Shown: piece by piece, positions 70 through 24,146 of the stretch | Layout: each line of letters starts with the position of its first letter | Position numbering within the stretch: the stretch's first letter is position 1 | Source of the DNA: a virus | Lineage: Duplodnaviria > Caudoviricetes | DNA length: 27,721 nt | Direction: 5' to 3' (one strand) | Virus record (IMG/VR): IMGVR_UViG_3300008093_000049 | Span: 1 to 27,721 of that record | Notes under the pieces: model-generated | Told to the model about the DNA's origin: nothing | Seen by the model: the letters and a program-made list of their open reading frames with translations, nothing else | Database searches by the model: none | Made by a program: the position numbers and the translations under genes

Positions 70-80
70 TTAATATTCCT

Positions 81-934: not shown

Positions 935-950
935 ATACACATAGGATAGG

Positions 951-1670
951 ATGCAGTTAATGACTAATATTAAACCACGTAAAAAAAATAAAAACAGTCA
1001 TGAATATTTAAATAATGGCGATATATTAAAGGAAATAGAAGCCAGTAAATTAACTTATTGCAGTTGGGTTGATACTCAATATACAGTTTATCAACTAACT
1101 GCAAATAATATTGATGAAGTAATTCGTGAGGGCGTAGTTTATCGCGTATATACAAACAGTCACATACCAGATGAAATTAATGCTAATAAAAATAAAAAGC
1201 GGCTTAGTAACAGGGATGCTTTTATCAAAGTTAATTTTAATCCATTTATTCACGTTATTAAAATAGATGATGAAATTACTACAGTATTAAAAAGCCATTG
1301 GGTGGGTGGTATGGAAAATGGCTATTTTAGTATTGAACATGGGCGCTTAACTAATAAATTGGGTATGCAGATAAAATTGCTTTGCGAACGTCTTGGCAGT
1401 AAAGGCAATTTTAATGGTTACACTTATATTGAAGACATGATCTGTGAAGCGATTGTTCAAACAGCCAGTGTGGCATTAAAGTTTAATGAAGCTAAAAGCC
1501 ATAATGCATTTGCTTATTTGACTACTATAGCTTATAATAGTTTTAGAGGCACTTTAAATACAGAAAAAAAGAACAGAGAAATAAATGAAGAACTGCTTAA
1601 TGAAATTGGTTTATATACAAATGCGCAAATGACCAGCTTTAAGCGTAATGCAGTTGGAAGTGGAGATTAA
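951..1670 (+). CDS. gp55: T4 gp55-like late-transcription sigma factor
   Basis: N-terminal YLNNGDILKEI, and C-terminal GNFNGYTYIEDMICEAI...KFNEAKSHNAFAYLTTIAYNSFRGTLNTEKK, match the gp55 pattern (NF.xY..xxDMI.D.I...FD..KS.NPFAYxTxIxxxxFxxRIxxEKK). The true start may be the ATG at 960, which has better spacing from AGGA. Confidence 0.85.
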   Translation: MQLMTNIKPRKKNKNSHEYLNNGDILKEIEASKLTYCSWVDTQYTVYQLTANNIDEVIREGVVYRVYTNSHIPDEINANKNKKRLSNRDAFIKVNFNPFIHVIKIDDEITTVLKSHWVGGMENGYFSIEHGRLTNKLGMQIKLLCERLGSKGNFNGYTYIEDMICEAIVQTASVALKFNEAKSHNAFAYLTTIAYNSFRGTLNTEKKNREINEELLNEIGLYTNAQMTSFKRNAVGSGD

Positions 1671-1672
1671 AC

Positions 1673-2035
1673 ATGCGGGAAGTTAATAAAGACGATAGAG
1701 TTACAGCGTTTGCGTTATGGAAAAAAATACATACGCTGTTTGAAAAAGAAAAAGAAATATTAAGTAAGAATTTTATTGAAATAATAGAAACCAGTGATTA
1801 CTATAGAAGTCTTCCTGTAAATATTTGTCCATATATTATATTAAACTCTGTAATTTGGCAAGATTATGCAATAACCGAAGAATTTGATGCAACAAATGGT
1901 CATTATTATTGTATTGATTCCTTAATTAATAACACTGATATATATATGGGTCAGCGTATAGGACAAATATATACTACCAAAATGCAAATAGTTGATAGAG
2001 CTCATTTTATGCGATTTACATTAGAGTTAGAATAA
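1673..2035 (+). CDS. Hypothetical protein, same operon as the sigma factor
   Basis: 120-aa ORF starting 2 nt after the sigma stop, with GGAG upstream. Confidence 0.75.
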   Translation: MREVNKDDRVTAFALWKKIHTLFEKEKEILSKNFIEIIETSDYYRSLPVNICPYIILNSVIWQDYAITEEFDATNGHYYCIDSLINNTDIYMGQRIGQIYTTKMQIVDRAHFMRFTLELE

Positions 2036-2082
2036 CGATAAATATATTTGTTATGTCTCATATAACAAATCCTTAAATTGTG

Positions 2083-2112
2083 AAAAAGCACCCCGCTCAT
2101 GGGTGCTTTTTT
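2083..2112. terminator. Bidirectional intrinsic terminator
   Basis: AAAAAGCACCC-CGCTCAT-GGGTGCTTTTTT, a perfect stem with a U tract on either strand. Confidence 0.9.
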
Positions 2113-2168
2113 ATTTGCATTTCTTGTAATTTAAGTTAATAATAAAAATAAATTAAGGAGAATAAAAC

Positions 2169-2588
2169 ATGCCATTTTTGGGTGTAACAAAAGAACAATA
2201 CAGCATTGAAGTAGAAAATGCACACTATATTGGTATGACTAGTAGAGAATTAATTAAAACTAATATTAACTTTATTTTAAACAATTTTAGTGATCCTCAA
2301 TGGTTAAAACAATACAAGTTGCCATACAGTGAAGAACGCAAGGGTGTTAAACCCTACGATTGGATTACAGAATATAATGGATTTTATTACTGCACAGTTC
2401 GCTTTGCTAAAATAAGATTAGAACTTGATTCAAATGCCAGTATTGCTGCTCGTGTAAATAATGTTCAAGAAGTAATTGACTTTTATAATTGGGCATTAAC
2501 TCAAGTAGATGCGGGTTATTTTGATAAAGGCATAGCAGATATACAATCACGACGTAAATCAACTAGAGGTAAAAAGCTGTCAGTTTAA
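2169..2588 (+). CDS. Hypothetical protein (resembles DUF6641-type proteobacterial/phage proteins)
   Basis: AAGGAG RBS at 2155-2160. The W..NG....VRFAKIRLEL...VDAGYFD pattern and basic C-terminal tail are a recalled resemblance, unverified. Confidence 0.6.
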   Translation: MPFLGVTKEQYSIEVENAHYIGMTSRELIKTNINFILNNFSDPQWLKQYKLPYSEERKGVKPYDWITEYNGFYYCTVRFAKIRLELDSNASIAARVNNVQEVIDFYNWALTQVDAGYFDKGIADIQSRRKSTRGKKLSV

Positions 2589-2608
2589 AAAATTCCTAAT
2601 AAAGATCA

Positions 2609-2863
2609 TTAAGTTTCTATAGGTTCAACCCAATTTGGATTTAATGTAAAGTTTGCTCCATCAAACATGTATTTTTGACTAATTACTTCATTAGGAACTT
2701 CAACATTTCTATACACTTTATATGTTGGCTTAAAACTTGCAATTACACCATTAATGTTATCTTTGTCAACAGCAGCCAAAGTTCCATTAATACTAACACT
2801 ACTTTGTGTATACAATATAAAAATTATTAGATTAGTTTCATCAGTAACTACATTCATTATCAT
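2609..2863 (-). CDS. Small phage protein, last gene of the late operon (possible fibre chaperone)
   Basis: ATGA overlap with the upstream gene. KYMFDGANFTLNPNW C-terminus resembles small fibre-associated proteins. Confidence 0.65.
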   Translation of the reverse strand: MIMNVVTDETNLIIFILYTQSSVSINGTLAAVDKDNINGVIASFKPTYKVYRNVEVPNEVISQKYMFDGANFTLNPNWVEPIET

Positions 2864-3966
2864 AATTTAATTACCCTTGCTACTAGATTGCTAGTTGGAC
2901 TTACAGTTATTTGTACCAAAGTTGTTTCATTTAATACTATTACTGCACTATAACTTGTATTTGCAGTTGATAAACTAGTATAATCCTTAAAAATATTAAT
3001 TACTTGTGGATCAACACTTAAAGTATTAATAATGGCACTTTTGATTAAATCATTAACTCTATAGCATAAAATTCCCCAATTACTGTTTATCTGTTGATAA
3101 CTAATATCGCTTGCAAAATTGTTTTCAACTATTACTTGTGTTCCTAATGTATCACTATCGGGAAAAACTGTTCTAATTATTGGATATCTATTAACGCTTT
3201 TGTAAACTGTAATAAATTTACCGTTATTAATTTTTTTAACGTGTAAAAATTCCTGTGATTGGTTTGGTCCGTTAGCACTTGCAAAAAGAAGTGCTCTAGT
3301 ATTTGGCCATGTTATTCTATTAATATAAGCTGCGTTATGATTATTAACAGTGTATAATTCAACACCTTTTTCTCCTGTTGCAGGATTAATTTCAATGTCG
3401 TAAAAAGTAGTATTAAGTGTATTACTAAAATTGGGCGTTAAATTTACTGAACTTCCACTAATGGTTGCTAGAAAATTTGTTCCTGTAACACCAACTAGAA
3501 ATTGATTTTCGTTTCCTGTTGTTTTAATTGTTGTTCCACGACTATTTCTCGCAGGAAAAAATTCAGGTGTTCCTAAAGTAAAATTGGTACCGTTATATAT
3601 TGCAGTTCTATAAACTCCATTGTCATAAGTTATTAAACAGTTATTAGGGTTAACACTATTACTTGCAATTTGACCTAAATTTTGGAAAAAAGTACTTAAA
3701 GTATTAATCTGTTGAGCAACTGCTGGACCCAATATTGTATTGCCACTAATTTTAAAATTTAATAGATAATTACCTGATGCATTATTACCCATAAAAGCAA
3801 TGGTATTTCCAATATTAACTATGCCGTTACGTTCGGCTATATTTACTGATGCACTGCTAATTATAGTCCACTCACCATTATTAGAACCATCATAATTAGC
3901 CCAACTAATACCGCTGGTTGCAATTATTTGTTCACCACCATCTTGTGCTAAAATTCCTAATATCAT
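2860..3966 (-). CDS. Putative virion structural/receptor-binding protein (beta-rich, possible propeller)
   Basis: 368 aa, rich in N/T/S/I, with a MILGILAQ start and an ATGA overlap with the upstream gene. Confidence 0.6.
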   Translation of the reverse strand: MILGILAQDGGEQIIATSGISWANYDGSNNGEWTIISSASVNIAERNGIVNIGNTIAFMGNNASGNYLLNFKISGNTILGPAVAQQINTLSTFFQNLGQIASNSVNPNNCLITYDNGVYRTAIYNGTNFTLGTPEFFPARNSRGTTIKTTGNENQFLVGVTGTNFLATISGSSVNLTPNFSNTLNTTFYDIEINPATGEKGVELYTVNNHNAAYINRITWPNTRALLFASANGPNQSQEFLHVKKINNGKFITVYKSVNRYPIIRTVFPDSDTLGTQVIVENNFASDISYQQINSNWGILCYRVNDLIKSAIINTLSVDPQVINIFKDYTSLSTANTSYSAVIVLNETTLVQITVSPTSNLVARVIKL

Positions 3967-4829
3967 CCTAATTTACCAATAGCATAAAATTGCGTTGGCG
4001 TTCTTGCAACAAATCCAACAGCTTCAAAAGGTTTATCAATAGTTGCAGTTGATGCACTTCCAGAATAACTTAATGTAATGCCTGCGCCAGGAACAATTGT
4101 TACTCCACTTATGGTTGTAATAATGTTAAATGTATCACCAACAGTCCATCCAGAATCCTGTATAGTTAATTCAACAGAACCGCTAACAAATATTACAGTA
4201 TTTCTTAATCCAGCACTGACTTCAATTGCACTATTAACATTAACTACTTCGGGTTTTTTATTATATTGTTCTTCTATTTTTACTTTACTTAAAATTTCTA
4301 CCCATTCTGTATTGCCATCATTGCTACTTGAAATCAATGCCATACCACTTATTGCGGGCGGAATCAGCGGAGGATAAAATACAGCATTGCCGTTAACGCT
4401 AAACTGAATACTGCCACCAAAAATTGGGTTATTACTTATTACATTAACACCGTATATGCCTAATTGGTTACTAGCGTTTAAATCACCCAGTTGTATTTGA
4501 GGGGGTGATGCATTAGCATCATAATATAATATTTGATCAGCAAATACTCCACCATAAAAATTAGCTGTATTAACAGCCCAAGTTATATCTAATGGAATTG
4601 ATTCATTTTCCCGTAATCCAGCATTGCCGCTAACTCTTACTTCATTACCGCTTACTACAACATCAACTGCGCCTGCACCTTTTATAGTTCTAAACTCTAA
4701 TGTGCTTCCGTTCTTACTTGAAAATACACTTGCACCATTACCAATATTAGATGCTCCTATAATATCTCCAGAACCACCACCACCACCGCCTTGATTAATA
4801 ATTAATCCATTTTCTAAAATTAAGCTCAT
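3963..4829 (-). CDS. Putative fibre protein
   Basis: Poly-Gly linker, an ASNIGNGASVFSSKNGSTLEFRTIK segment and a VGDTFNII...VTIVPGAGITL...FYAIGKL C-terminal domain typical of phage fibres. Confidence 0.65.
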   Translation of the reverse strand: MSLILENGLIINQGGGGGGSGDIIGASNIGNGASVFSSKNGSTLEFRTIKGAGAVDVVVSGNEVRVSGNAGLRENESIPLDITWAVNTANFYGGVFADQILYYDANASPPQIQLGDLNASNQLGIYGVNVISNNPIFGGSIQFSVNGNAVFYPPLIPPAISGMALISSSNDGNTEWVEILSKVKIEEQYNKKPEVVNVNSAIEVSAGLRNTVIFVSGSVELTIQDSGWTVGDTFNIITTISGVTIVPGAGITLSYSGSASTATIDKPFEAVGFVARTPTQFYAIGKLG

Positions 4830-5164
4830 TAACTTACTCCTACAAAGTTTGTTCCTGAGCTAAACACACCTGTAGCTGTTCCACTAAAAGCACTGTTTGA
4901 TCTAACAAAGTATTCTGCTGCGGGATTCATAACAAACGCATAACTTCCTGTAGCAGTAATTGTTCCTGCAAGACCCATATAAGTTGTGCTGTCTATTTTT
5001 TGACGTTCCATAATTTCAATTGTACCAGTAAAGCTGCTAGTTTCATCAACTAAAATAAAGAACACGTCTCTGGCTGCGTCCTTCTTTTTTAAATATGCTT
5101 CAATACCTGGAATTATGGGTGTTAATTGACTTGCACCTGTAAAATTAAATTCAATTTTCTTCAT
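4829..5164 (-). CDS. Small structural protein (possible fibre/spike base)
   Basis: 111 aa with an AAGGAG RBS and a TAATG overlap with the downstream fibre gene. Confidence 0.6.
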   Translation of the reverse strand: MKKIEFNFTGASQLTPIIPGIEAYLKKKDAARDVFFILVDETSSFTGTIEIMERQKIDSTTYMGLAGTITATGSYAFVMNPAAEYFVRSNSAFSGTATGVFSSGTNFVGVS

Positions 5165-5197
5165 TTTAGTCTCCTTTATGGATTTTTAACTATTAAG

Positions 5198-5205
5198 TAT
5201 TTAAG
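5198..5205 (-). promoter_or_regulatory. Possible variant late promoter CTTAAATA
   Basis: TAAATA core in the 5165-5232 gap, 34 nt upstream of the ATG. The context is AT-rich, so this is weak. Confidence 0.35.
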
Positions 5206-5232
5206 TATTTTTATTGCTGTATTAACGCAGTA

Positions 5233-6087
5233 TTAATCTATTCTTCTACAACGAATAAATGTTCCTGCTGGCAATGTGCCGCTAGCAAAAGCGCCAATAT
5301 TGATTGAAGTTAAGTTTTCAGCACTAACATTTGCATAATATAAACTGCTTCTTATCATTTGATTTCTATCTACAAATATGGTGCTTTCACCCATACCAAC
5401 TAATCCATTTGGCATAGTAATGTTAATAGTTGAAACTGAACCTCTTCCAGAAACAATTATATTACTGTTTACCCATATATCATTGGTAATAGATTGTATA
5501 TTTGAGGTTGCTGATGTTGTAAGACCTTGAATACCCACACGACCATATGAGTATGCGCTAACTGGAGCAAAAAAGTTTTCATTTATTCCAATTGCTGTTT
5601 GATAAGTGCCTGCAACAGGCGGAGTTATTATTTTAATTTCAACAGTATCAACTCCTGGCGGAACAGCAACACTTAAATTGGCTGGGCTTGTATAAGCAAC
5701 TGAAGTAGTTGTTTCATAAAATATACTTGTGAGAGGAGCTGTGTAAGTTCCGCTAATTAATATTTCATTCCAAACCGAACCTTCAAATTTTAAAAATGAA
5801 TTATTTTCTGAATTTAAAAATACTTGCCCTGTTTTAGCTTCAGCATACCTCCAAGCATCCCCAACTCTAAAAGCAATTTGAGTATCTCTTGTATTCCATT
5901 CACCTGTACCATTACTGCTAACTATCCAAGCAGTGCCATTAACTGCTGATACAGGGGGATTACTGCTAACACCTAATACATAACCTCCCGCAACAGCATC
6001 TAAAATGAATAATGCTTCATTAACTGTAGTAGCTTTTTGGGATTGTGTTTCTAAAACTTCTGTTATGTTAAAATTAAAAGTTGCCAT
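5233..6087 (-). CDS. DUF2793-domain tail fibre / receptor-binding protein
   Basis: N-terminal QSQKATTVNEALFILD...PP...GTAWIV...GEW...QIAFRVGDAWRY is the DUF2793 signature. It follows the megatron gene. Confidence 0.85.
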   Translation of the reverse strand: MATFNFNITEVLETQSQKATTVNEALFILDAVAGGYVLGVSSNPPVSAVNGTAWIVSSNGTGEWNTRDTQIAFRVGDAWRYAEAKTGQVFLNSENNSFLKFEGSVWNEILISGTYTAPLTSIFYETTTSVAYTSPANLSVAVPPGVDTVEIKIITPPVAGTYQTAIGINENFFAPVSAYSYGRVGIQGLTTSATSNIQSITNDIWVNSNIIVSGRGSVSTINITMPNGLVGMGESTIFVDRNQMIRSSLYYANVSAENLTSINIGAFASGTLPAGTFIRCRRID

Positions 6088-6096
6088 TTTTATTCC

Positions 6097-9000
6097 TTAT
6101 ATAGTTAATGTGCTTGTATAGCCTACGCCTACATCAACACTTAATTGCGCAATAGTTATTGTAACATTAGTTGAATAAACATCACTAATAGTTAATGTTG
6201 TAGTATTTAATACTGAAAATACGTTTGTAATTGTGTTATCTGTTACTTGAACTTCATATTGTTCTATTGCTTCTGAATTAGCTAGATCAATAAAGTTATC
6301 CCATCCTTCTCGTAAACGATCATTTCTAATCCAATTAATAACAATATTTCCGCCAAGACGGCTCGCATTTAAACTTGATGGACTGCGAGGTTTGCTTGAT
6401 GCTGCACTCCAAACGTGAAACTCTTGTGGCGAATTGGATATGTTAAGTCCTGCACCAACCGCACGATAATCAATGGGTGTATTTAGTGAGTTAGTTGTGT
6501 CACCAGGACGGAATATGCCCACACCGGTTGATGGAACGAATATAGCGTTTGAGAAAGCGGAGTGCGATCCACTAGTGAAGCTGTCTCGTGTTCCTCTTCT
6601 GTTTCTAAGTAATTTACTCAAACGCCATAACCCGTTACCTAATTCCTCCGCCTCAGAGTATTGGATTAATTCCCAATTTTGATCTTCTGTGCCTATTAAT
6701 ACAGCACCATCGCCAGCAAGCACTTGTTCTTCGGAATAGCTTGATAGAACAGTTGATTGGTTGTTTAGTTGAACAGTAACTGTATTGGCTAAATCCCAAT
6801 TGTTCCAAGGATAAGCAGGAAGCGCAACTGTTATTCTACCTAAAGTAGCTCGTTCATTGTGAGTAATAACCAAATCATATTCTGTGCCTGTGCGTCTAAA
6901 CACGTCCACACCTCTAAAATTGTTAGTGCTGTTAGCATTATCAGCAGCCGCATACCAACCCAATCCGCTATCAGCTACTCTCAATGACGGGCAATCCACA
7001 AATATCCAAGAGGGCGGATATGTAGGATCCGCATTTTTAACGGGTAGAATAATGCCAGATGAAGGCGTGTAGTTTTGTGCTGTTAGGGTATTATAGAACG
7101 CATCTTCAAAGCGTCTAGCTATAATGGTCATTAACACGCCGCCACTTCTTGTTTCTACAACTTCATACTTTTCACCTGACTGCGTATAATAATCATCTGT
7201 GTAAGTGATTTGGATTAAATCACCAGGTTCCAATCCCAAATATTCCACATCTGTTTGACCGTAGATTGGCACGTTGATGGTTATACCACGACGATTTTGG
7301 TTTTCTTCAAACAGGATACGGTCTGTAATGCTTTTGGCAGCAGGGCTTCTCATAACTATTGGACTATCAACAGCCACATTGTTTTCATTAGGCGCTGTAC
7401 GTCTATTGCTTCGTTGACTTGCTTGTTGATAATCAAAGTCAGGATCAATATAGTTGAGTGTTACGGAACTTGGGATACCTGTAATTTGGTTGACTGTTTC
7501 CTCAAATATGTCCGCATCACTGTTTTCGCTAGCACCAAAGTCATTTGGGTTGATAACTATTGGAGTTCTACCATACTTTCTTTTGAACTTTAGCTTGCCT
7601 TCGCTTTCAATATAATAAAAGCCAAATGCAGTTGCCAGAGGATCAATAGCTTCACGGGCTGTTGTGGGTTTTGCAATAATATAGCCTTCAAGACCACCAA
7701 AGTCGGGCAGAGCATCAAGCCCATCCAAATCAGTTGTGTCTATTTGTGACGGTTGTAGACCAACCTTGTTCAACAGAATGTCATCAACAATCTTTTTTAT
7801 GGTTGTCTGCCCCGGCTGCCTAATGCTTAATTTTAAGAAGTAGTCACTAGCAAAGCTGTTTCTTCTATAAAAGATGCCCCTTCTCCGCCAATCATAGCTG
7901 GTAAAACCGTTAGAAGCCGGAACCCAAAGGGCTGGATTATAATAGTCCAAATCTGTAATGTCAGTTGAACTTATTCTAATAGCTGAAAATTGTGATAAAT
8001 TGGGTGTTGTAATCCAAAAATTGCCTTGTGGATCATATACAGGTTCTGCTGCCATTTGGGTGGTAAAATTTGTTGTGCCCAGCGCATCATAATCTGCACC
8101 AAATTCCGCACTTAATTCATTACTACTTTTTGTCCCCAAAACTGTTGCGGCGTTTATGTCAATTAACACCCAAGTAGGTAAATTACCAAACCCCCCTAAT
8201 GCTTCGTGTCGCCCCATATGCATTAAAAGTGTCTTATTTCTACTATCCAACATTATAGCATTGTCATATTGGTTTCCCGCAAAGCTGAATGTAAACCAAT
8301 TGGATATTTCTGTTGCGCTTTGGCTGGCAAAACTATTATCTGCAACAGTTTCAGGTCCTACAGGTTCAAAAGGAAACTTGATTGATGCGCGCATTAATAT
8401 TGCGTTTTCATTTGTGCTGGCTAATCCAACTTTGTAATAATGCCAACTTAAATTGCCTTCATCAAATTCCGGGTCCATCACCCCAAGAGCGTCCTGAATG
8501 TAGATTGAAAATGGTTGTCCTGTAACCATTTCTGTGGGTGTCCACATTTTAACTAATTCAAACTTGCTGCTCGTAAGCAGGATTGCTTGAACTGAAAGCG
8601 CATTTAGTGAGAAACGCCCAACTCCGTTTGCTTCTTGATCCACGCGGTTACTTGCCCAAACAATACGCTTTCCCTGTATGGGGAATGGTGTAACTTGAAC
8701 GCAGGCGTCTCTTGTTTGTGAAAGACCAATATCTAATAAAACTCCGTTTGTTTGCTTGGCGTATCGTCCTGTTCCGCTTGCTCGATTTAGTGCAACCAAA
8801 TATCCACTGATAAAAGGTGACACGTCTAATCCAGTAAGCGTACCTGCAACATAAATGTATTCATCATCTACGTCAAAGTTATTATCCCAACTAAACGAAC
8901 CCGTTCCAATAGTTTGAGGGACCAAGGATATATTATTAACACGCTCACCAACAGGGCTTGGGAACACCCAAGCAGGACCAATACTAATCACGCTTCTAGT

Positions 9001-9819: not shown

Positions 9820-10235
9820 TCTCGTATCCTAAAAAAACTCATTTTATGGCCTTCTTCTTTGCTGGGATAGTTTACTAAAACAACCCGCTTTGCTCTACTA
9901 TCTGCATGAATAATACGATTATTGTCATACATTACTGCTAGGTGGGTGGGGTTTGGCACGTCTTTGATTTTAAATAATAAAATATCGCCTTTTTCCGCAT
10001 TTTCTACTCGATCGCAGTAGTTCCTAATCTGCTTGAGCAGAAGGGTATTGGTTGCTATCTGACTGTAGCCTTCGCAGACTATTTTTTTAAGTGGCAGGGG
10101 ACATATACCGCCGTTCATCAATGCAAGAACCAATAATCCCACACAATCTACCCCGTATTGAGTGTGCCCACCCGCTCTATAGGGCGTGTTGATTAACTTA
10201 AAGCATTCGTCTGCTAATATAATTCGCTTACTCAA
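9816..10235 (-). CDS. NlpC/P60 tail-tip peptidase
   Basis: TPY..GG...GVDCVGL (catalytic Cys), GDILLF, HLAV, IIHA. Sits between hub and megatron. TTG start after GAGGGG. Confidence 0.92.
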   Translation of the reverse strand: MSKRIILADECFKLINTPYRAGGHTQYGVDCVGLLVLALMNGGICPLPLKKIVCEGYSQIATNTLLLKQIRNYCDRVENAEKGDILLFKIKDVPNPTHLAVMYDNNRIIHADSRAKRVVLVNYPSKEEGHKMSFFRIRE

Positions 10236-15489: not shown

Positions 15490-15781
15490 TTTTCATTTTC
15501 CTAACTTGATGTTCAACATATACTTCATCAAGTTGACTTATAGCGCGCATAAAAGGAATAGGTTCAATATCCCAATTACATATGTTATGGTAATTTAACA
15601 CATCTGTAGTATTTAAACGTTCAATACCCATACCAACTGCCCTAAATGAACTTAAATCTAAAAAGCTCTGTAATAAAAATTTACTTAAACCTTCAAGGGG
15701 CGGTAACTCCTCTAACATTCCAGCTTCAATCAATGCACGATCTAAAGCCCTGCCAGACAAGTCCGCCCTTAAATGTTTTTT
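15482..15781 (-). CDS. Tail assembly chaperone T segment (translated as a G-T fusion by -1 frameshift)
   Basis: The -1 frame from the slippery A AAA AAC (15781-15775) reads KKHLRAD into the 15760 ORF. FLDLSSFRAVGMG...ISQLDEVY is typical of this family. Confidence 0.8.
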   Translation of the reverse strand, partial: KKHLRADLSGRALDRALIEAGMLEELPPLEGLSKFLLQSFLDLSSFRAVGMGIERLNTTDVLNYHNICNWDIEPIPFMRAISQLDEVYVEHQVRKMKNG

Positions 15782-16203
15782 GCTTCATCTACTGCTTCCT
15801 CTAAATTTTTAACAAAGAAGTTTTCAATGTCACCAACTGCATCAAATATTTGTTTAGATATAGTAGGAAACTTTTTACTGCAAAACTTTTCAGCAAGTTC
15901 TTTATTAAAAGGAATGGGTTTTCCATCTTTAGTTAAACCTTCCCAATCAAGCAATATATTATTTGCAATAAAGTTTGGTAACATGGCTGTTAAACCTTCT
16001 TCTATCCAATCTTCATTTGAAACTTTTCTGCCTATTTTTTTGTTTTTAGAGAAATAGTTTTTACGTTCTTTATCAATTTTTGATTGATATTCGTTTTTAG
16101 CAACGTTAGCAATTTTAATTTTAAAATCACCACCTGGTGTTTCAATTGTAACCCAAGTGCCATCACTCAGCTCATCGCTTACTTCATAATTAAATATTTC
16201 CAT
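15769..16203 (-). CDS. Tail assembly chaperone G
   Basis: GTWV...ILLDWEGL..DGKPIPFNKELA, located between tube and tape measure, with a GGAG RBS. Confidence 0.88.
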   Translation of the reverse strand: MEIFNYEVSDELSDGTWVTIETPGGDFKIKIANVAKNEYQSKIDKERKNYFSKNKKIGRKVSNEDWIEEGLTAMLPNFIANNILLDWEGLTKDGKPIPFNKELAEKFCSKKFPTISKQIFDAVGDIENFFVKNLEEAVDEAKNI

Positions 16204-16214
16204 TTCTTAACTCC

Positions 16215-17393
16215 TTATGCTAGGTAATGTAGCGACACACTTTTACCAGTTAATGGACTAACGTTAGCTTGGAAAGTTGCAGCAACAGTAACAACTTCAT
16301 CTCTAGCTGGAATAGCATTTGGATGAGCTGTAATAGTTGCATACGGTATTTCTAAACTAAAGTAATTTCCTGCTATGTCTTGTAAAATTGAACCGATCTG
16401 TATTTTGGTACCTAGTCTATAAGCTTCAAGTAATGTTCTATTTTTTAATGCAAAAGTAACTGTTCCTGTAACACCCACACTGCCTTCACTAATATCAGCA
16501 GCAAATTCACTTCCCAATGCTCTAAAAGGAGTAAGGTTATTGTTGACAGTAATTTCAACGTTTGTAACAAGTAAGTTTGATTGTGGAACGTTATCAACAC
16601 TTAACCAAAACTTTTTAAAGTTATCGGTTGGATTTAGTTCTACAGTGTTGCTTGCAGGCACAGTTGCAGTCTTTGGATCAGCTGATAAACTTCTTAAAGT
16701 TGTACCTGCCATAGTAAATGTTTGTTGCGGAATTTCGCCAACACTTAATTTAAGGGTATATTCGCCAACAGTTAAGTTATTTCCAACAACATAAGTTGAG
16801 ATGCCTTCATAACCTTGAACAAATGTAAATGCTTTTGGATAAACATCATTGGTTATTCTTGAAAACTTGTTAATAGTTAATGTATCAGCATTAGCACTAA
16901 CAATTGGTGTAGCTGGATCTAAATAAATTGCAGTAGCAGAACTTTCAGGAGTTAATGCAACTGCATAAACACCATTTAGTTGACTTTCAACTGCGCTGGT
17001 AATAGTAAAACGTGTTCCGGGAGACATAACAGGAAAACTTAAACCAACTAGCATGTTTGAACCAACAGCAGCACTAGCGGTTACAAATTCTGCTGATATA
17101 GGAGTAGCAACACCAAATAGTGCGCCTTCTAATAAATCTGTTAATTCGCCAACTTGTAAATATGTAGAAAAGCCAGCATTTGTATCTTTAGCAACTGCAA
17201 TTGGTGCAGTTGTTTGACGATCTGATCTAATAACTTCGCTGTCTGCTAATTCAACTTCAATATTAATACCATCGCTGGGTAATATATTAATAAGTTGCAT
17301 TGCCGAAACATCTTCAACAAATGGATTTTGGCAAAGTGCTTCTGATTTGTATGCAAGGGAAGTTCTTCCACCTGTAGTAGTTAAACAAGCCAT
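16215..17393 (-). CDS. Major tail (tube) protein, Phage_tube_2-like
   Basis: TGGRTSLAYKSE start, SEVIRSDRQ and EITVNNNL...LGS. Position fits, and no sheath gene is present. Confidence 0.85.
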   Translation of the reverse strand: MACLTTTGGRTSLAYKSEALCQNPFVEDVSAMQLINILPSDGINIEVELADSEVIRSDRQTTAPIAVAKDTNAGFSTYLQVGELTDLLEGALFGVATPISAEFVTASAAVGSNMLVGLSFPVMSPGTRFTITSAVESQLNGVYAVALTPESSATAIYLDPATPIVSANADTLTINKFSRITNDVYPKAFTFVQGYEGISTYVVGNNLTVGEYTLKLSVGEIPQQTFTMAGTTLRSLSADPKTATVPASNTVELNPTDNFKKFWLSVDNVPQSNLLVTNVEITVNNNLTPFRALGSEFAADISEGSVGVTGTVTFALKNRTLLEAYRLGTKIQIGSILQDIAGNYFSLEIPYATITAHPNAIPARDEVVTVAATFQANVSPLTGKSVSLHYLA

Positions 17394-17430
17394 GTTTGGT
17401 CTCCTGAATAAATGAATAAATGTAGCTTAA

Positions 17431-17444
17431 ACATATTTATACGC
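17431..17444 (-). promoter_or_regulatory. T4-type late promoter GCG-TATAAATA-TGT
   Basis: Exact TATAAATA at 17441-17434 in the gap upstream of the tube gene. The same 14-mer occurs at 24133-24146. Confidence 0.85.
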
Positions 17445-17466
17445 TTACTCATTAAATATAGTAATA

Positions 17467-17907
17467 CTATATTATGGCTTCACGTCTACTCCAACGATAA
17501 TTTTGTTCTACAATGTAAATGTGCTTGCCCATATCATCTTCACCCACATATACTTCATTGGTGGGATTAACTAATTGTAAACAATTTAAACTGTCAATTT
17601 CAATACTGCCTGTGGATATAATTTGACTTGTAATGCTGTCAACTATGCTGCTAACATGATTTGTTCCGCTGCCTTTATGTGCAACTATTTTAACTTCTAA
17701 TCTAACTGCTTGAAATCTAAATGCACCATTTGTTTGCCATCCAACTGCAAATGGAGTTGTTAATCCAAAATCAACTCTATATACTAGGTATGTTTTACCT
17801 TCATCAGGTATTTTACCTCTATTTTCACCAACTCTATAAGTTCCTGGTGCAGTTAAGGGATTTTCAATAATGGATTCTAATGCGTTTTTTACTGCAACTC
17901 TACTCAT
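17467..17907 (-). CDS. Putative tail terminator
   Basis: 146 aa directly upstream of the tube gene, with a YRVDFG...EVKIVAHKGSG pattern. Confidence 0.65.
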   Translation of the reverse strand: MSRVAVKNALESIIENPLTAPGTYRVGENRGKIPDEGKTYLVYRVDFGLTTPFAVGWQTNGAFRFQAVRLEVKIVAHKGSGTNHVSSIVDSITSQIISTGSIEIDSLNCLQLVNPTNEVYVGEDDMGKHIYIVEQNYRWSRREAII

Positions 17908-18182
17908 CTTCTTCCTGCCACTAATTGAACAGCGCGCTCAAACCATCTAGCACCCTGTTTGGTTGCACTACCAAAATAAACAAATGGTGCATATGGGGCA
18001 TCATTTTTAAGTATAAAACCTTTTTCATCTTCAATTAATTGATTTCTAGATACTAAAAATCCACTTTTAATTGGAGTTAATTTGTTGGCTTCTGTTAACA
18101 CTTCTTCAGCAAATTTTTTAGTAGCATTTCTATTTATTTCTTTTAAATGCTCTGCTAATTGATTAACTTTAATTTTAGCCAT
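17904..18182 (-). CDS. HK97 gp10-like neck / tail completion protein
   Basis: TPIKSGFL...NDAPYAPFVYFGS..QGARWF. The start is better placed at ATG 18182 (TAATG overlap). Confidence 0.8.
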   Translation of the reverse strand: MAKIKVNQLAEHLKEINRNATKKFAEEVLTEANKLTPIKSGFLVSRNQLIEDEKGFILKNDAPYAPFVYFGSATKQGARWFERAVQLVAGRR

Positions 18183-18544
18183 TACAATCTTCCGCAATAT
18201 ATGGTGTATTCGGCATCAGCAGTAATATCAACGCCTTTTACTTCCCATCTAATATTATTGTGTATTAAATGACTGTTTGTATCTACATTTACCCCTGCTG
18301 AATTAACATAAAAGATAAAGTCTACATCTTTAAATTGAGGTTCGTTTCTATCTTTCTGCTTAACGCTGGCTTTTAATCCTTTAACTACTTGAGGCGCGCT
18401 AACTGCTAATACAGGATCAGCTAAAGCACTTGTTTCAATAACACCTGGAGTAAAAATGCTGATAGTATATTCAACACTAGGAAAAACACCCGCAATGCCA
18501 GAATGAATAACATTTTTAACTAGATCATTAACATCAATACTCAT
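18182..18544 (-). CDS. Putative head-closure protein
   Basis: 120 aa, beta-rich, positioned after the adaptor with an ATGA overlap. Confidence 0.6.
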   Translation of the reverse strand: MSIDVNDLVKNVIHSGIAGVFPSVEYTISIFTPGVIETSALADPVLAVSAPQVVKGLKASVKQKDRNEPQFKDVDFIFYVNSAGVNVDTNSHLIHNNIRWEVKGVDITADAEYTIYCGRL

Positions 18545-19107
18545 CTAACACCCTGATATATTTTAAAGCTAGAACCACTAGTATTAAGACTACTAGTTAA
18601 ACTGCCATATTTCTTTAAGTATTCATTAACACGATTACTAATTTGATACATGTCACCAAACACTTCATTTGTGTCTCTAAAAGTAACACTTAACTCACCC
18701 ACTTGTGTTGATTTAACAGCAGTAAATGGTTGTGCAGTTTCTCTATTAACACTATTAAGTTCAATACTTGTAATAGCAGCCGCAATCTGCACTGCAAGAG
18801 GTATTTCGTTGTTTGGTAAAAGTGTATTACTGTTATTGCATGTAGCATAAATGCCTTCTATTGGCACATTATCACGAGCCCAGTCTAACCCTTGAATTGC
18901 AACTGTTTTACTTCCAAGCCAAGTATAAGCATTGTCAATAACGGCTGCGCTTCTAATTAATAAGCTTTGTTGAACATCGGCACTTAAAGCAACCCATGTA
19001 TCACCTTCGCTTTTACTTGCATATGTATAAATTAAGTCACTAGCCGAGCTAACTGAAATATAGCTATTAGCACTACTGCTGGATATATCTGTGTTAAATG
19101 CAATCAT
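18541..19107 (-). CDS. Head-tail adaptor (DnaT-like-annotated phage family)
   Basis: ANSYISV...W..L...LLIRSA..ID...WLGSK....QGLDWAR...IPLAVQIA, plus QVGELSVTF. Confidence 0.8.
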   Translation of the reverse strand: MIAFNTDISSSSANSYISVSSASDLIYTYASKSEGDTWVALSADVQQSLLIRSAAVIDNAYTWLGSKTVAIQGLDWARDNVPIEGIYATCNNSNTLLPNNEIPLAVQIAAAITSIELNSVNRETAQPFTAVKSTQVGELSVTFRDTNEVFGDMYQISNRVNEYLKKYGSLTSSLNTSGSSFKIYQGVR

Positions 19108-19120
19108 AGTTAACTCCTAA

Positions 19121-19150
19121 AATAATAAAAGAGGAGTTTCCCCCTCTTTT
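19121..19150 (-). terminator. Intrinsic terminator after the major capsid gene
   Basis: Minus strand AAAAGAGGGG-GAAA-CTCCTCTTTT followed by ATTATTTT, with a GNRA loop. Confidence 0.8.
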
Positions 19151-19178
19151 ATTTATTACGCATATCAATAAATTAATA

Positions 19179-20156
19179 TTAGTTTTTATGAACGCAAATT
19201 ACGTATGGGTATTGACGTGCTAGAGGATAAGAATTTTGCCAATTGGTTGTAGTTGCAATTTCATCATTTGTTGGGCTGTTAGCAGCAGGAGTACCTACCC
19301 ACTTTGTTCCCTTTAAATGCATAAAGTAACGTCTACGTGTAATCAATCTGGATAGTGAGCTTTTACCTTCACGTTCTACTTCGGTCATAACCATACCATT
19401 AACGCCATCGGGATGAACATTAACAATAACTGATTCAGGAGCAAATGCAAAAGTTGCATAAGCATTAAAGTTAGCTGTAGCTGAAACAACCCAAGTTGGA
19501 GCAACTGCGTCGTCAACTAATAGTGTTAAGCCTCTCCAAACACCAAAAGGTGCACCTTCGCTGGCTCGTTCAAAAGTAATTTCGTTGTTAGCTTCCATAA
19601 CAGTGTATGTGTCACTGTGAACAACCAAATGTGTAAACTTCAAATATTGGTCGCCCATTATTTTACGTGTTTCTAACCAGTTGTCAACGTTGAAGCCACT
19701 ATTAACATTGCCAGTAACATCATTAACTAGGAAACTAAAAGCGGAGCTTCTAGCAACACCAGTTAATACTGATTTTAAGTCTGCTGAATAACGATCAACC
19801 CAATAAGTATCACGTATAAAGCTTTCAAGTTGTCCTACAGGATCAGCACCTGCGTTGTATTTTGCAATGTCAAAGTCAGCAAAGCTTTTAGCACGTTCAC
19901 GTATAATAGCAAATTCGCTTGAGCTTGTTATTGGGGTATCTGTTAGATCAGTACCACCCACCATTACTTCATCATCACTTGATGGTTCATTAAAATATCT
20001 AACAGTAACGGAGTTTCCACCTTCTGCTAGGTTTGCAAGTTGCATGTTAGCTACTACGGGTGAAGTAACAACACGACGTGCGTTTGGAGTAGGAAGAACA
20101 GTATATTCACTGAACTGTTCTGGTATAATTATATTAACTAGGTTTGTACCTGCCAT
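19179..20156 (-). CDS. Major capsid protein
   Basis: 325 aa after the scaffold, with IIPEQFSEY, RAKSF..D...GADP, VVHSDTY, GLTLLVDD and LITRRRYFMHLKG. Followed by a terminator. Confidence 0.9.
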   Translation of the reverse strand: MAGTNLVNIIIPEQFSEYTVLPTPNARRVVTSPVVANMQLANLAEGGNSVTVRYFNEPSSDDEVMVGGTDLTDTPITSSSEFAIIRERAKSFADFDIAKYNAGADPVGQLESFIRDTYWVDRYSADLKSVLTGVARSSAFSFLVNDVTGNVNSGFNVDNWLETRKIMGDQYLKFTHLVVHSDTYTVMEANNEITFERASEGAPFGVWRGLTLLVDDAVAPTWVVSATANFNAYATFAFAPESVIVNVHPDGVNGMVMTEVEREGKSSLSRLITRRRYFMHLKGTKWVGTPAANSPTNDEIATTTNWQNSYPLARQYPYVICVHKN

Positions 20157-20177
20157 TTTTCAATTCCTTTTAAAAGT

Positions 20178-20846
20178 TTATGTTTTTTTAGCTTGTGCTT
20201 TGAGTTTTTCAGCTAGTGCAGGATCTTTGCGAATTAGTTCATTCTGTTGGGTTCTATTGCCAGTAACAAACGGGTTATTCTCATTAACTACACTATTGTT
20301 ACTAAAGCTACCACCAGTAAGACCACTTCCAGTTGTTTTATTGCTTTTAAAAGCCACGCTGTAAGCAGCATTTTGTTTAAATTCTTCAACTAAATCGCTA
20401 ACTTCTGCTAATTCACCATTAGCTCTTTTAACAATATTACCCAAAGAATCCGTTACCACTACTTTTTGAACGCCTTCATGTTCTACAATTTTTACTCTGC
20501 TTTTTAAATGCGGTTCTAAAAGTTCAGTATAAGCATTATTTTTATTTAATGCTTCACGAATATGAGTTGTTTTAGTTAATTCCTCGTATTGGTTTCTATA
20601 TTGGTTTACAGTTGTGTCTTTTGCAGCACGTTCCTGTTCCAATAACCTACGGGTTTCTTCTAATTCAGCTCTTGTTTTTTCTACTTCACTTAAGGGCTCA
20701 CGCATTTTAGCTTTTGTATTAACCAAGTCCTTTTTAACGTTCTCGTTTTCGTCTGCTAATTTAAGCATTGCATTCAACTTTTCTAACCCACTAGTTAATT
20801 GATTAATTAACTCAGGGTCAAATCCCTTGTTATCTTCTTCACTCAT
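20178..20846 (-). CDS. Capsid scaffolding protein
   Basis: Coiled-coil N-terminal half and a GSGLTGG...NPF..GNRTQQNELIRKDPALAEKLKAQA C-terminus typical of scaffolds. Confidence 0.85.
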   Translation of the reverse strand: MSEEDNKGFDPELINQLTSGLEKLNAMLKLADENENVKKDLVNTKAKMREPLSEVEKTRAELEETRRLLEQERAAKDTTVNQYRNQYEELTKTTHIREALNKNNAYTELLEPHLKSRVKIVEHEGVQKVVVTDSLGNIVKRANGELAEVSDLVEEFKQNAAYSVAFKSNKTTGSGLTGGSFSNNSVVNENNPFVTGNRTQQNELIRKDPALAEKLKAQAKKT

Positions 20847-20907
20847 TTTGTTTCCTTCGTACCACTCTAGAAAATATAATAGTTTTGTACCACGCCACTA
20901 TTACTGT

Positions 20908-20915
20908 TATTTATA
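20908..20915 (-). promoter_or_regulatory. T4-type late promoter TATAAATA
   Basis: Exact match in the portal-scaffold gap, upstream of scaffold and capsid. Confidence 0.8.
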
Positions 20916-20920
20916 TAGTA

Positions 20921-22420
20921 TTATTGATTTACATCAATTGGTCTGTTATTTAACCCGCCTGGTAGTTCTCCGGATGTGTTTAATTCACTATCATCATCAA
21001 GTATATTACGTCTTTTACTTTCTTTTAAGTAAGTATCTCTGTCAATAATACCTTGCGCATACATATTTGTTACATATTGGAAGTTAGCAGTTTCTGGAAC
21101 AATACTATCTTCAGTGTTTAAATTAACACCTGTAGTAAATGCGGGTATACTTCTATCATATAAGCGCATTAATTCAAATCCTTGATTAATAGCACTTTCT
21201 AATATTCTAATATTAGCACCCGGCACAACACCGCTTTCAATTTTGTTTAATATAGCACTTGTAGCAGTTATTTGGCTGCTGTTCTTTTGATTGTAGTATT
21301 CGCCACTAATAATACTCATCTTTTCTTCAATATCTTTTATTTCATTCATACCAGCGTTAATACTAGCACCTGAATGTTCAACAAACTTTAAATCTCCAGA
21401 ATCTGGACCACCAATAATCATACCTGCTGTTATTGGAATTGTTTCATGTTCACTACCAGTATTCATTCCTTTAGCAAACATTATGGGAACTCTAGCATAA
21501 TGATTAATGTTTATTTGGTCACTATAACTTTGGTAATGACGTAAATTTAATTCTGCTAGGTTTAAATATAAGGGTTTAGATATCATAAAACCCAATTGAT
21601 TTAAGTTAAGAGTAACTATTGGAATAAAACCCAATCTGTTTGGCACAACATTAACTAGTTCAACAACTTCAGCACTTGATGCAGTTAATTTACTTCTATA
21701 AACTTGAATAACATCTTTGCTATATACAACGTATTCTTTGTATTTTTTAACTCCAAAAGCTCCTTCCTGTATGTCAACATATCTTACAAAACGTATTTGT
21801 GTTAACTCCATATTGCCATTGTTGAACTCATAATTCCAACCATACAAATTATTAGCAGGTATATGAACAAAGTAGGGTCTATTTAAATCGCCTTCCTGTA
21901 TGTCATCATAAAGTGTTCTATTTGGACTTAATTGCGGGTTTTCAACTAGATAAAAACTAATACCATTAATATTTGCATCTTTGTAAAAGTTAATAGCCCA
22001 ATTTTCCAAATTGGTTCCAGTCATATCAATATTTTGACAGTAGTCCTGTATTTTTGTTGGAACATCAAGACCCCATGTAACTCCATGTCTAAACGGAATT
22101 AAACTAATTTTATCAATAAAGTTACCATACACATTATATAAAACACTTCTACGTAATCTTAACTCATATAACTCATTACTTTCGCCCAAGTTCTTTGGAA
22201 GATAGAGAGTAGTATTTTCTTTTAAGTAATCATTACCTTTGTATAGTGCATTTGGAATATCTCTCCAATACTTCATAACTAAAAAGTCTTCATTTACAAA
22301 CTGTGGTTGATGCGGATCATTTGTTATTTCAACTTGATTTTGATTACTAGTAGCACGTTCGCGTTCATAATAGTTTCTAACAGCAAAGTTATCTTTGCGA
22401 CCCACCCAAACATCTGTCAT
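20921..22420 (-). CDS. Portal protein (DUF4055-type)
   Basis: YLPK..GES...Y..RL.RSVLYN, NIDMTG, RPYFVHI, IPIV and PLYLNLAELNLRHYQSYSD. Confidence 0.9.
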   Translation of the reverse strand: MTDVWVGRKDNFAVRNYYERERATSNQNQVEITNDPHQPQFVNEDFLVMKYWRDIPNALYKGNDYLKENTTLYLPKNLGESNELYELRLRRSVLYNVYGNFIDKISLIPFRHGVTWGLDVPTKIQDYCQNIDMTGTNLENWAINFYKDANINGISFYLVENPQLSPNRTLYDDIQEGDLNRPYFVHIPANNLYGWNYEFNNGNMELTQIRFVRYVDIQEGAFGVKKYKEYVVYSKDVIQVYRSKLTASSAEVVELVNVVPNRLGFIPIVTLNLNQLGFMISKPLYLNLAELNLRHYQSYSDQININHYARVPIMFAKGMNTGSEHETIPITAGMIIGGPDSGDLKFVEHSGASINAGMNEIKDIEEKMSIISGEYYNQKNSSQITATSAILNKIESGVVPGANIRILESAINQGFELMRLYDRSIPAFTTGVNLNTEDSIVPETANFQYVTNMYAQGIIDRDTYLKESKRRNILDDDSELNTSGELPGGLNNRPIDVNQ

Positions 22421-23682
22421 AATTTCAATTCTCCAAAGTTAAAGTTTTTATTAACCATTGGATACGCATAATGTGTTGCGTATCTTAATGCGTCACCAAT
22501 GTGATCATAACCTTTTGTTTTGTCAGGTCCGCCATTAGCTGAGTATTCGTGTTTTCTAAAAGTAGTAATTAATTCTTTACATTTACTATTTACATATAAT
22601 CTTCTAGTTTTATTAGCATTATATAATAACCCATTAACTTCGTTAATACTGTCCTCTACACGCGGATTATGTCGCATATCATGGAATCTAAATCCCTTGC
22701 TTTTAATAATATCAAAGTCAGTTGTTAAACTGCTGCTTTTTGTATTTCTACCCGATGCGTCTGGTACTATAACAGTCCTTTGTCGAACTTTTTCTGGTAA
22801 TATTTTTAATAAATGATCCATCATTTCAAAAGTATTTGAGTTATACAATACTACTTCATCAACAACGTGTAATTCGCGTTTAGTTATATCCTTCTTACAA
22901 ATAACAGCACACATTTTGGCCACGTTAAAGTCAAGTCCAATTATAGTTTCATCCCGGGAATCTAATTCAAAACTGTTGTCATAATTAATGTTGTCATCGC
23001 TAAATGCATAATATATTTGTGAAAAACTGCTGTTAAATTGCGCTTCGTATTCCTGAGCAAACTGTAAAAAGCCCATTTCGTCTCTAGCTTTTTGTATTTC
23101 TTCTTTACTTAAAATACCAGCATCTACACTACTGCAATGAAAGCTAGTCCAATCTGTGTATTGCGGATTATTACTCACCCCATTTTGATAAAAATCATAA
23201 AACATGTCATAGCCATTTGGTGTTGAATAAACGTCCAAGCTGGCATTTTTATCTGATAGTGCAGGTCTTAACATAGTCCAAACATAATCTTGATTTTCAA
23301 AAAACGCAAATTCATCTAATACAACGTGATCCAACCCCAACATACTACCTCTTAAGCTGTCTGGATTACTAGCACCTTTTAGTGTTATTTGACTGTTATT
23401 TTTAAGAACTATTTTAAGTTCACTTTCATATGTTCTTTTTATTAAGCTGGGATGATAAAACATTTTAAGACTAGTCCATAAAATGTTTTTAACTGCACCA
23501 TAAGTAGGTCCCACATACCAAATATTTTTATTAAAGGCGGGAGTGCCATCATCATTTACCCTAGCTTTTCTATCCATCCTGCACATAGCAGTTGTGCTTT
23601 TACCACTTCGTCTGCCTAAACAGCCAATAGTAAATCTGCTTTTGTTTTTAAATATTAAACTTTGATTGTAAGTTAACTGCAT
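22417..23682 (-). CDS. terL: Terminase large subunit
   Basis: Walker A GRRSGKS, Walker B HVVLDE, STPNG, and nuclease motifs GLDFN, PDASG and DHIGDALRY. Confidence 0.96.
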   Translation of the reverse strand: MQLTYNQSLIFKNKSRFTIGCLGRRSGKSTTAMCRMDRKARVNDDGTPAFNKNIWYVGPTYGAVKNILWTSLKMFYHPSLIKRTYESELKIVLKNNSQITLKGASNPDSLRGSMLGLDHVVLDEFAFFENQDYVWTMLRPALSDKNASLDVYSTPNGYDMFYDFYQNGVSNNPQYTDWTSFHCSSVDAGILSKEEIQKARDEMGFLQFAQEYEAQFNSSFSQIYYAFSDDNINYDNSFELDSRDETIIGLDFNVAKMCAVICKKDITKRELHVVDEVVLYNSNTFEMMDHLLKILPEKVRQRTVIVPDASGRNTKSSSLTTDFDIIKSKGFRFHDMRHNPRVEDSINEVNGLLYNANKTRRLYVNSKCKELITTFRKHEYSANGGPDKTKGYDHIGDALRYATHYAYPMVNKNFNFGELKL

Positions 23683-24035
23683 TAATCATCTTTAACATCT
23701 GGGTGAATTGACACTTGGGGTAATAGCGCAATAACATCATTGTCGGTATCCATATTACGTCTTGGTGGCAATAATCCATGTTGCATTCTGCCCAATACAT
23801 TATCAAGCAATGTCATCCAAGCACCTGCCGATTTATGATCGCCCATAGCTTTTGCATTTTGAAACATTTCATAACAATCTTTGGCGACTTGAGCTGTAGC
23901 AACAAACGGGTTTATTTCTTCGTTAATGCAAGCATCAACCCACGCTTTTTGTTCACTTAAGGTGCTGTAATTTAAAACACCTCTAACTCTACCAACACCA
24001 AATTTGGGTTTAGTATTGTATCTTGGTTTAGTCAT
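23682..24035 (-). CDS. Putative terminase small subunit
   Basis: 117 aa immediately upstream of TerL (TAATG overlap), with a GRVRGVLN basic motif. Confidence 0.6.
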   Translation of the reverse strand: MTKPRYNTKPKFGVGRVRGVLNYSTLSEQKAWVDACINEEINPFVATAQVAKDCYEMFQNAKAMGDHKSAGAWMTLLDNVLGRMQHGLLPPRRNMDTDNDVIALLPQVSIHPDVKDD

Positions 24036-24096
24036 TTGCGTTTTCCGCTGTATTTACTGCTGTTTCTTTCTTTGATGCGGGTGTTTTTGATTTCAT
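24028..24096 (-). CDS. 22-aa leader ORF MKSKTPASKKETAVNTAENAND
   Basis: First ATG with a plausible RBS (AAGG) after the late promoter. Its stop overlaps the TerS start (ATGACTAA). Confidence 0.4.
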   Translation of the reverse strand: MKSKTPASKKETAVNTAENAND

Positions 24097-24132
24097 ATAT
24101 CTGCCTTTTCCTTAATTTTTATGCCCTATCAC

Positions 24133-24146
24133 ACATATTTATACGC
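24133..24146 (-). promoter_or_regulatory. T4-type late promoter at the head of the morphogenesis operon
   Basis: GCG-TATAAATA-TGT with the box at 24143-24136, identical to 17431-17444. Confidence 0.85.

Follow-up and report, generated by a model that had tools for sequence, protein, structure and literature searches.

In the standard review (PMC2988020), the gp55 late-transcription system is called unique to the T4-related phages. The jumbo phage CBB, as reported (PMC5259590), possesses a gp55-like sigma factor, neither gp33 nor gp45, and the motif ATAAATA at 35 sites before structural genes, so that the switch has already been predicted in print for this gp55 subfamily. Here we describe a gp55-family gene, the open reading frame (ORF) 951-1670, and a set of promoter-like boxes in an uncultured phage of groundwater, the viral record IMGVR_UViG_3300008093_000049 (Duplodnaviria; Caudoviricetes). 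The complete record of 27,721 bp (G+C 29-42%) was analysed and is referred to below as the window. What is new is the setting of a known mechanism: the gp55-family sigma factor probably reads three TATAAATA boxes, and likely AATAAATA as well, thereby switching on the blocks of a siphovirus-type virion operon.

With T4 the window shares a homologous sigma-2-like core of the sigma factor, in which five of the seven residues known to form base pockets are identical, the identical 8-base TATAAATA box without a -35 element, and AATAAATA, which is also a T4 variant (PMC2988020). It differs from T4 in that the protein has no equivalent of T4 residues ~117-185 or of the C-terminal clamp epitope and has its N-terminal helix separated from the core by ~80 extra residues, and in that the virion is non-contractile. 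With the jumbo phages Rak2 and CBB it shares the sigma factor family (PHROG 12791 for both), the lack of a clamp-binding tail and an ATAAATA core ahead of structural genes (PMC5259590 for CBB). Theirs, however, is a 350-kb myovirus genome, whereas the window holds a siphovirus module with a tape measure and a tail tip of the type found in the gene transfer agent RcGTA; moreover, the ~44-residue insertion of the jumbo clade is missing from the window protein.

The tail-tip gene set is the same as in the RcGTA-tip siphoviruses (phiJL001, phiCbK, RDJL, R5C, Rhodobacter and Brevundimonas phages), which the hub protein matches. Unlike the window, these phages revealed no gp55-family gene in any of 14 representatives, which were cultured or complete hub-matching phages picked from 83 records to span genera and sizes of 41-353 kb (T4, used as a control, was detected at 2.5e-70 and 7.3e-8). 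Neither was gp55 detected in 50 IMG/VR records of distant portal relatives (the longer contigs of 79 loci, 19 of them at least 90% complete; the window as positive control gave 8e-45). The converse search for DUF2460 in 30 of the 79 gp55-relative records (the longest contigs) gave nothing above the cut-off, with six sub-threshold matches inside giant ORFs. The accessible literature on gp55 with siphoviruses, late promoters, gene transfer agents and late sigma factors reports no such combination either. Thus, the database check advised in the preliminary description of this locus has produced no counter-example to its suggestion that gp55 had not been described together with an RcGTA-type tail. 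It may be added that the jumbo-phage fragments L081-L087, IMG/VR contigs with gp55 relatives, contain open frames of 4672-5295 residues, inside which the weak sub-threshold DUF2460-like matches lie.

The gp55-family sigma factor and its transcription unit

The sigma transcription unit comprises the following features:

906-934, plus strand: candidate weak host-type promoter of the sigma gene, TTGCTT (906-911), 17 nucleotides (nt), TATATT (929-934)
951-1670, plus strand: gp55-family late sigma factor, 239 amino acids (236 in other gene callers, which start at Met4)
1673-2035, plus strand: ORF of 120 amino acids right behind the sigma gene and sharing its terminator, function not assigned
2037-2044, plus strand: GATAAATA, just past the stop of ORF 1673-2035 and ahead of the terminator
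2080-2114, plus strand: strong intrinsic terminator closing the unit, a 14-pair stem plus a T run

We assign ORF 951-1670 to the gp55 family of late sigma factors. It gave no match in the Pfam scan; in PHROGs it matched phrog_12791 ('sigma factor for late transcription', E 7.2e-51) and phrog_234 (E 1e-24). T4 gp55 (PDB 7D7C, chain 7d7c_F) was matched by the single sequence in phmmer at E 1.8e-6 and by a 23-sequence profile at E 6.8e-10, and the hhalign comparison of the two proteins gave a probability of 95.4%. The second AlphaFold job, run with a more diverse alignment of 38 rows, yielded one confident model (predicted local distance difference test, pLDDT, 75; predicted template modelling score 0.67), whose top fold match in the PDB is 7d7c_F (probability 1.00, root-mean-square deviation 1.4 Å over 79 columns), followed by region 2 of sigma-E (bound to its -10 element), RpoS, SigA and sigma-28. 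These matches bear out the gp55-like nature that had been proposed for the ORF, and the comparison of fold and profile with T4 gp55 confirms a sigma region-2-like core. The earlier label 'T4-type' holds at the level of the gp55 family and fails at that of T4's own subfamily, the protein being closer to the Rak2/CBB jumbo phages and devoid of the clamp-binding tail.

Mutational evidence in PMC7892883 assigns residues N13, L54, R57, F86, H95, Y97 and T99 of T4 gp55 to the pockets that take up bases -12, -9 and -8. In our alignments the five identical residues of the window protein are N22, L148, F178, Y189 and T191, R57 is replaced by K151 and H95 by F187, and the latter change is common to the entire jumbo subfamily. 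The N-terminal segment 1 is kept (T4 Y10-V-N-N corresponds to Y19-L-N21-N22), and for the second conserved aromatic residue (W23 of T4) no equivalent is seen at matching spacing. The window protein ends with ...SFKRNAVGSGD, 31 residues past the sigma-2 core, and contains nothing like SLDFLYEAND, the clamp-binding epitope of the T4 C-terminus.

The best cultured matches of the protein come from Rak2/121Q/CBB-like jumbo myoviruses (32-33% identity over 85% of the query). Cultured records matching gp55 at E <=0.1 number 1680, and all 60 rows drawn evenly down their ranking are myovirus or jumbo-phage genomes of 144-350 kb, T4 included. Among the 80 loci kept of 383 IMG/VR relatives, one contig is identical and the others are 36-40% identical; of the 79 non-identical loci, the 30 with the longest contigs are 5-46% complete by CheckV, a 167-kb contig corresponding to 46%, and are therefore fragments of ~360-kb genomes. 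A collection of 5.8 billion proteins provided one sister with 77% identity on a 1.3-kb contig and nothing further above 49%. In a quick tree with long branches, the window protein and this sister tentatively branch outside the jumbo clade. The relatives were of little use for footprinting of the boxes, the 77% sister lying on that short contig and the short-form sigma factors P0097 and P0099 leading nowhere beyond the jumbo clade. Among the 41 TATAAATA words in 44 loci from uncultured relatives, 23 are intergenic and have a same-strand ORF no more than 150 nt away, with 16% of bases being non-coding, as counted with a crude gene model and with near-duplicate loci kept in.

As for the sigma70-type promoter that the preliminary description had placed before the gene, a candidate with an extended -10 element (TG at 926-927) is present, only it is weak: it matches at 8 of 12 positions, under the threshold of the promoter scan, which did not list it. 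A weaker promoter of the sigma gene would fit delayed expression. The 120-amino-acid ORF 1673-2035 gave no family, PDB or Atlas match and no similarity to gp33. This ORF and ORF 2169-2588 were considered as gp33-like partners and rejected, as neither gave a family, PDB or Atlas signal or had a homologue beside gp55 in the fetched loci.

The virion operon and its predicted late-promoter boxes

The boxes accompany a minus-strand operon, which in transcription order consists of the following parts:

2609-24035, minus strand: virion operon, beginning with a small ORF, large terminase, portal, scaffold, major capsid, head-tail connectors and tail tube, then the tail genes
within 2609-24035, minus strand: tail part, with tail chaperones, tape measure (1102 amino acids), DUF2460, hub and NlpC/P60
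within 2609-24035, minus strand: operon end, with Phage-tail_3 + Rcc01698_C (1240 amino acids), a DUF2793 fibre and four unassigned ORFs

The candidate late-promoter boxes, with starts predicted by the T4 convention (box at -13 to -6), and the terminator next to one of them are:

24136-24143, minus strand: box A, TATAAATA within GCGTATAAATATGT, at the operon head; predicted start ~24130, 34 nt before a 22-codon ORF; -35 matches <=2/6, no TG
20908-20915, minus strand: box C, TATAAATA, before scaffold and major capsid; predicted start ~20902
19150-19157, minus strand: probable variant box D, AATAAATA (GCGTAATAAATA), before the head-completion genes; predicted start ~19144
19127-19148, minus strand: intrinsic terminator behind the major capsid gene
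17434-17441, minus strand: box B, TATAAATA within GCGTATAAATATGT, before the tail tube; predicted start ~17428, 35 nt to the ATG; -35 matches 3/6

The word TATAAATA occurs exactly three times in the window, each time on the minus strand and in an intergenic gap of the operon (24143-24136, 20915-20908 and 17441-17434), just as had been noticed from the sequence at the outset. Boxes A and B have 14 identical bases in common, GCGTATAAATATGT. At all four boxes the next start codon lies 34-56 nt beyond the predicted start, and at boxes A, B and D the -35 hexamer is matched at no more than 3 of 6 positions at any spacing, with no TG.

Over the whole window the word is not in excess, being found 3 times versus a shuffle mean of 6.1, with at least 3 copies in 98 of 100 shuffles. 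On the sense strand of the operon gaps (544 nt), the same three copies exceed an expectation of 0.20 (P = 0.0008 when the gaps were dinucleotide-shuffled 5000 times). In the operon genes NATAAATA is depleted on both the sense (1 vs 7.3) and the antisense strand (0 vs 5.7), with P ~0.003 each in 300 shuffles. The count by strand and by genic or intergenic position that had been suggested as a check has therefore come out in favour of the boxes. The shorter core ATAAATA occurs six times in the window, five of these in intergenic positions, and is absent from 24242-27389 and from a 3,977-nt early extension of the window; the 14-kb locus L092 holds it at five known sites only versus 11.4 expected. 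The placement of the boxes is real and non-random.

Of two variant boxes proposed earlier, both were found at their positions and one is retained. AATAAATA at 19157-19150 is plausible as a late box, since it has A at -13, the commonest natural variant of the T4 late box (9 of 50 sites; PMC2988020). Its predicted start falls in the 5' arm of the capsid terminator (19148-19127), and transcripts from box D would thus begin past most of the stop signal. The other candidate, CTTAAATA (5205-5198), is unsupported: it departs from the box at two positions, and even TNTAAATA, with a single mismatch, is present 24 times in the window, five of its nine minus-strand copies being in genes.

The families of the operon products are a terminase with T4-type fold, a DUF4055 portal, a Phage_tube_2 tail tube and a hub with phiJL001 gp84 N-terminal and BR0599 domains. 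Downstream of the tape measure lies an RcGTA-type tip set, every member of which (DUF2460, hub, NlpC/P60, Phage-tail_3 + Rcc01698_C) exceeded the Pfam cut-offs, and no sheath gene was found in the operon. Judged by its gene content, the virion module is of siphovirus type and non-contractile, in agreement with the initial reading of it as a non-contractile module with an RcGTA-type tail tip.

Early promoters and RNA-library contigs

Two host-type promoters in the window are considered as early ones:

24183-24211, plus strand: host-type early promoter divergent from box A, TTGACT, 17 nt, TATTAT
25375-25402, plus strand: host-type early promoter, TTGACT, 16 nt, TATAAT, 11/12 positions

The sigma-70 scan performed no better than on shuffled sequence (58 vs 56 and 55 vs 67 sites) in this AT-rich DNA, and only gap sites with 10-11 matches of 12 are cited here. 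To the right of 24242 the plus strand carries small early-type ORFs. Beyond the window, L092:1-3977 (minus strand), which continues it past 27389, contains six copies of a promoter-plus-leader unit ending GCTATAAT, five of the six having TTGACA at canonical spacing, and one variant promoter besides; each unit, with its shared 5' leader and ribosome site, precedes a small ORF without a PHROG match. Such near-consensus -35/-10 promoters point to a host sigma factor of the ordinary -35/-10 kind and to the late boxes as another class. The early promoter together with its leader (25372-25454) is duplicated at L092:3369-3451 with 82% identity, and the DNA contigs of run X1 break there. Another tandem repeat was observed at the end of L092.

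The RNA data are Logan contigs, which show neither RNA starts, strand nor level, and are a weak hint at most. Three aquifer metatranscriptome runs gave 11, 8 and 6 contigs on 7800-27721, concentrated on 19193-20887 (scaffold, capsid) and 15214-17398 (chaperones, tube). Two of the runs end at 19193, beside the capsid terminator, and the contigs have upper ends (20867, 20887 and 17398) that fall short of the predicted starts by 15-35 nt. Boxes C and B are bridged by no RNA contig, yet are crossed by one DNA contig. On 1-8200 the RNA runs provided 0, 0 and 1 contigs, whereas the DNA run covers everything, which argues against plain DNA carry-over. As no RNA contig falls on 1-7700 or 21100-24424, these libraries are uninformative on the expression of the sigma factor, terminase and portal.

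Proposed late switch and alternative explanations

According to the proposed scheme, host sigma-70 polymerase would read the early promoters (TTGACT/TATAAT-type in the window, and six TTGACA...TATAAT units on the longer contig), and the weaker extended -10 promoter would then drive the sigma gene. The product of 951-1670 would bind the core of host RNA polymerase and redirect it to the -35-less boxes, where transcription would start at the three TATAAATA sites and likely at AATAAATA. Within the operon, the boxes are found ahead of the packaging/portal, scaffold/capsid, head-completion and tail blocks. Owing to the capsid terminator, the scaffold and capsid mRNA would be the most abundant late transcript, and from box D, which overlaps this terminator, transcription would resume and run on into the head-completion genes. 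The cascade from host sigma70 through gp55 to the virion genes, as first put forward in the preliminary description, is supported computationally by a true gp55-family sigma factor, boxes in sense-strand gaps and strong host-type early promoters; the steps that lead from the protein to the boxes are those which we infer.

Several points weigh against this scheme. On the side of the protein, only one of the five models of the second fold job is confident (the other four have pLDDT 42-51), the first job with its 23-row alignment reached pLDDT 44 and its model was not used, the Foldseek E-value of the 7d7c_F match is only 2e-3, and T4 H95, which belongs to the -9 pocket, is F in the window protein. 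On the side of the DNA, the numbers behind the statistics are small (three exact copies plus a variant), a copy of NATAAATA is found within a gene (18138-18131), and the plus-strand GATAAATA at 2037-2044 stands before a terminator with no obvious role. Sixteen nt upstream of box C there is a -35-like TTGATG matching at 4 of 6 positions, owing to which host sigma might read this box. No close relatives of the phage were found, the portal searches returning identical contigs only and the 52-59% portal relatives lying outside IMG/VR. The genome is incomplete, and its unseen part may hold gp33, a clamp or another regulator. The limits of the RNA data given above are counted here as well.

The incomplete genome bears on the idea of a full T4-style system, in which efficient late transcription would depend on a sliding clamp and on a co-activator resembling gp33, supplied by the unseen part of the phage genome or by the host. 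With CheckV completeness of 38% and contig sequence on both sides of the window, gp33 or a clamp could lie in the unseen part; besides, T4 gp55 alone supports basal transcription only (PMC2988020), and an unassigned 120-amino-acid ORF is co-transcribed with the sigma gene. This ORF, however, is similar neither to gp33 nor to anything else, and the window protein stops 31 residues past its sigma-2 core with nothing resembling SLDFLYEAND. The gp33 and gp45 clamp families found no match in 32 window ORFs searched with Pfam, 21 searched with PHROGs and 8 ORFs of the extension searched with PHROGs, which together represent 31.7 kb of an incomplete genome, and the nearest cultured subfamily is reported without gp33 and gp45 (PMC5259590). 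Considering these facts, we regard a full T4-style arrangement as unlikely. By the same reasons, namely the short C-terminus without a clamp-binding tail and the nearest cultured relatives reported to have neither gp33 nor gp45, a switch driven by the gp55-family protein would likely work without a sliding clamp.

The boxes might also be -10-only promoters of host sigma-70 (TATAAA(T)) or sites of some other late regulator, the gp55 homologue controlling other genes or none in the window. TATAAA does resemble the host -10 hexamer, box C has the 4/6 -35-like element mentioned above, and the protein-box link is a predicted one. Nevertheless, the evident host-type promoters are near consensus and have a clear -35, whereas no such element accompanies boxes A, B and D; genes and early regions have been cleared of the word on either strand, as would be expected of a signal readable anywhere by a resident factor; the word is exactly that of this protein family in T4, and its core is reported for CBB; and the pocket residues are mostly kept. 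This makes the involvement of host sigma or another regulator, in our opinion, very improbable. Still harder to accept is a mere coincidence, by which AT-rich gaps would happen to hold the word. Chance would be in keeping with the AT-rich base composition (29-42% G+C) and with fewer copies of the word overall than expected; against it, at least three copies appear in just 0.08% of gap shuffles, three of three sites are on the sense strand, two of them share 14 identical bases, and the depletion in coding sequence is significant on both strands.

If control of the operon by the gp55-family sigma factor is true, a gp55 regulon operates on an unrelated siphovirus chassis, which would show the sigma factor and the 8-base promoter to be portable as one module. 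Such a regulon would provide a small system, consisting of four promoters and one short protein, for asking whether a gp55-type sigma works without a sliding clamp, and annotators would gain a readable late-promoter signal for this phage lineage. A bolder version, to which we give some credence while holding it rather doubtful, is that one short gp55-type protein, without a clamp tail, gp33 or a phage clamp, runs the whole late programme of a mid-sized siphovirus, as a minimal portable T4 switch that would have moved or persisted outside the myoviruses, with one promoter nested in the capsid terminator to let late transcripts start anew beyond it.

Genome extent and other features of the window

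The segments 80-11667 and 10924-27514 were recovered by independent IMG/VR contigs with 99.7-99.97% identity. A chimeric assembly, which the preliminary description had named among the possible refutations, is thereby ruled out, and the stretch that joins the sigma gene to the tail genes has been seen independently. Matching DNA comes from aquifer and spring metagenomes. To the left of position 1, one DNA contig continues for ~3.26 kb, and on the right side a 31.3-kb metagenome contig adds 3,977 nt past 27389; the largest contig carrying the sigma protein has a size of 34,785 bp. The genome is thus incomplete and measures at least about 34.7 kb, and the CheckV completeness of the record corresponds to a full genome of roughly 70 kb. 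No tRNAs were found in the window, and the Rfam scan revealed no family.

Further genes of the operon are the following:

24035-23682, minus strand: first operon gene; the start predicted for box A lies 95 nt upstream
15769-16203 and 15482-15760, minus strand: two tail-assembly-chaperone ORFs ahead of the tape measure, the usual place of a programmed frameshift

Between box A and the first operon gene there is a 22-codon upstream ORF (24096-24028, minus strand) with its own ribosome site; it overlaps the start of that gene (ATGA), which suggests translational coupling. On the plus strand, 26601-27344 encodes a 247-amino-acid protein similar to NAD-dependent epimerases/dehydratases, which covers positions 67-227 only of the Pfam model, the N-terminal nucleotide-binding part being apparently missing.

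Repeats occupy both ends of the window, and assemblies break at both arrays. At 80-652 there are six short direct-repeat families of iteron-like appearance, with units of 30, 12, 11, 22, 10 and 23 nt in 2-4 copies each, which may represent a replication origin or another protein-binding array. The right end (27331-27721) is a tandem array of ~33 copies of the 11-nt unit TATGAATATGA, 78% alike; ORF 27335-27721 on the minus strand lies wholly within it and is probably spurious, and the version of this array in L092 is much shorter.

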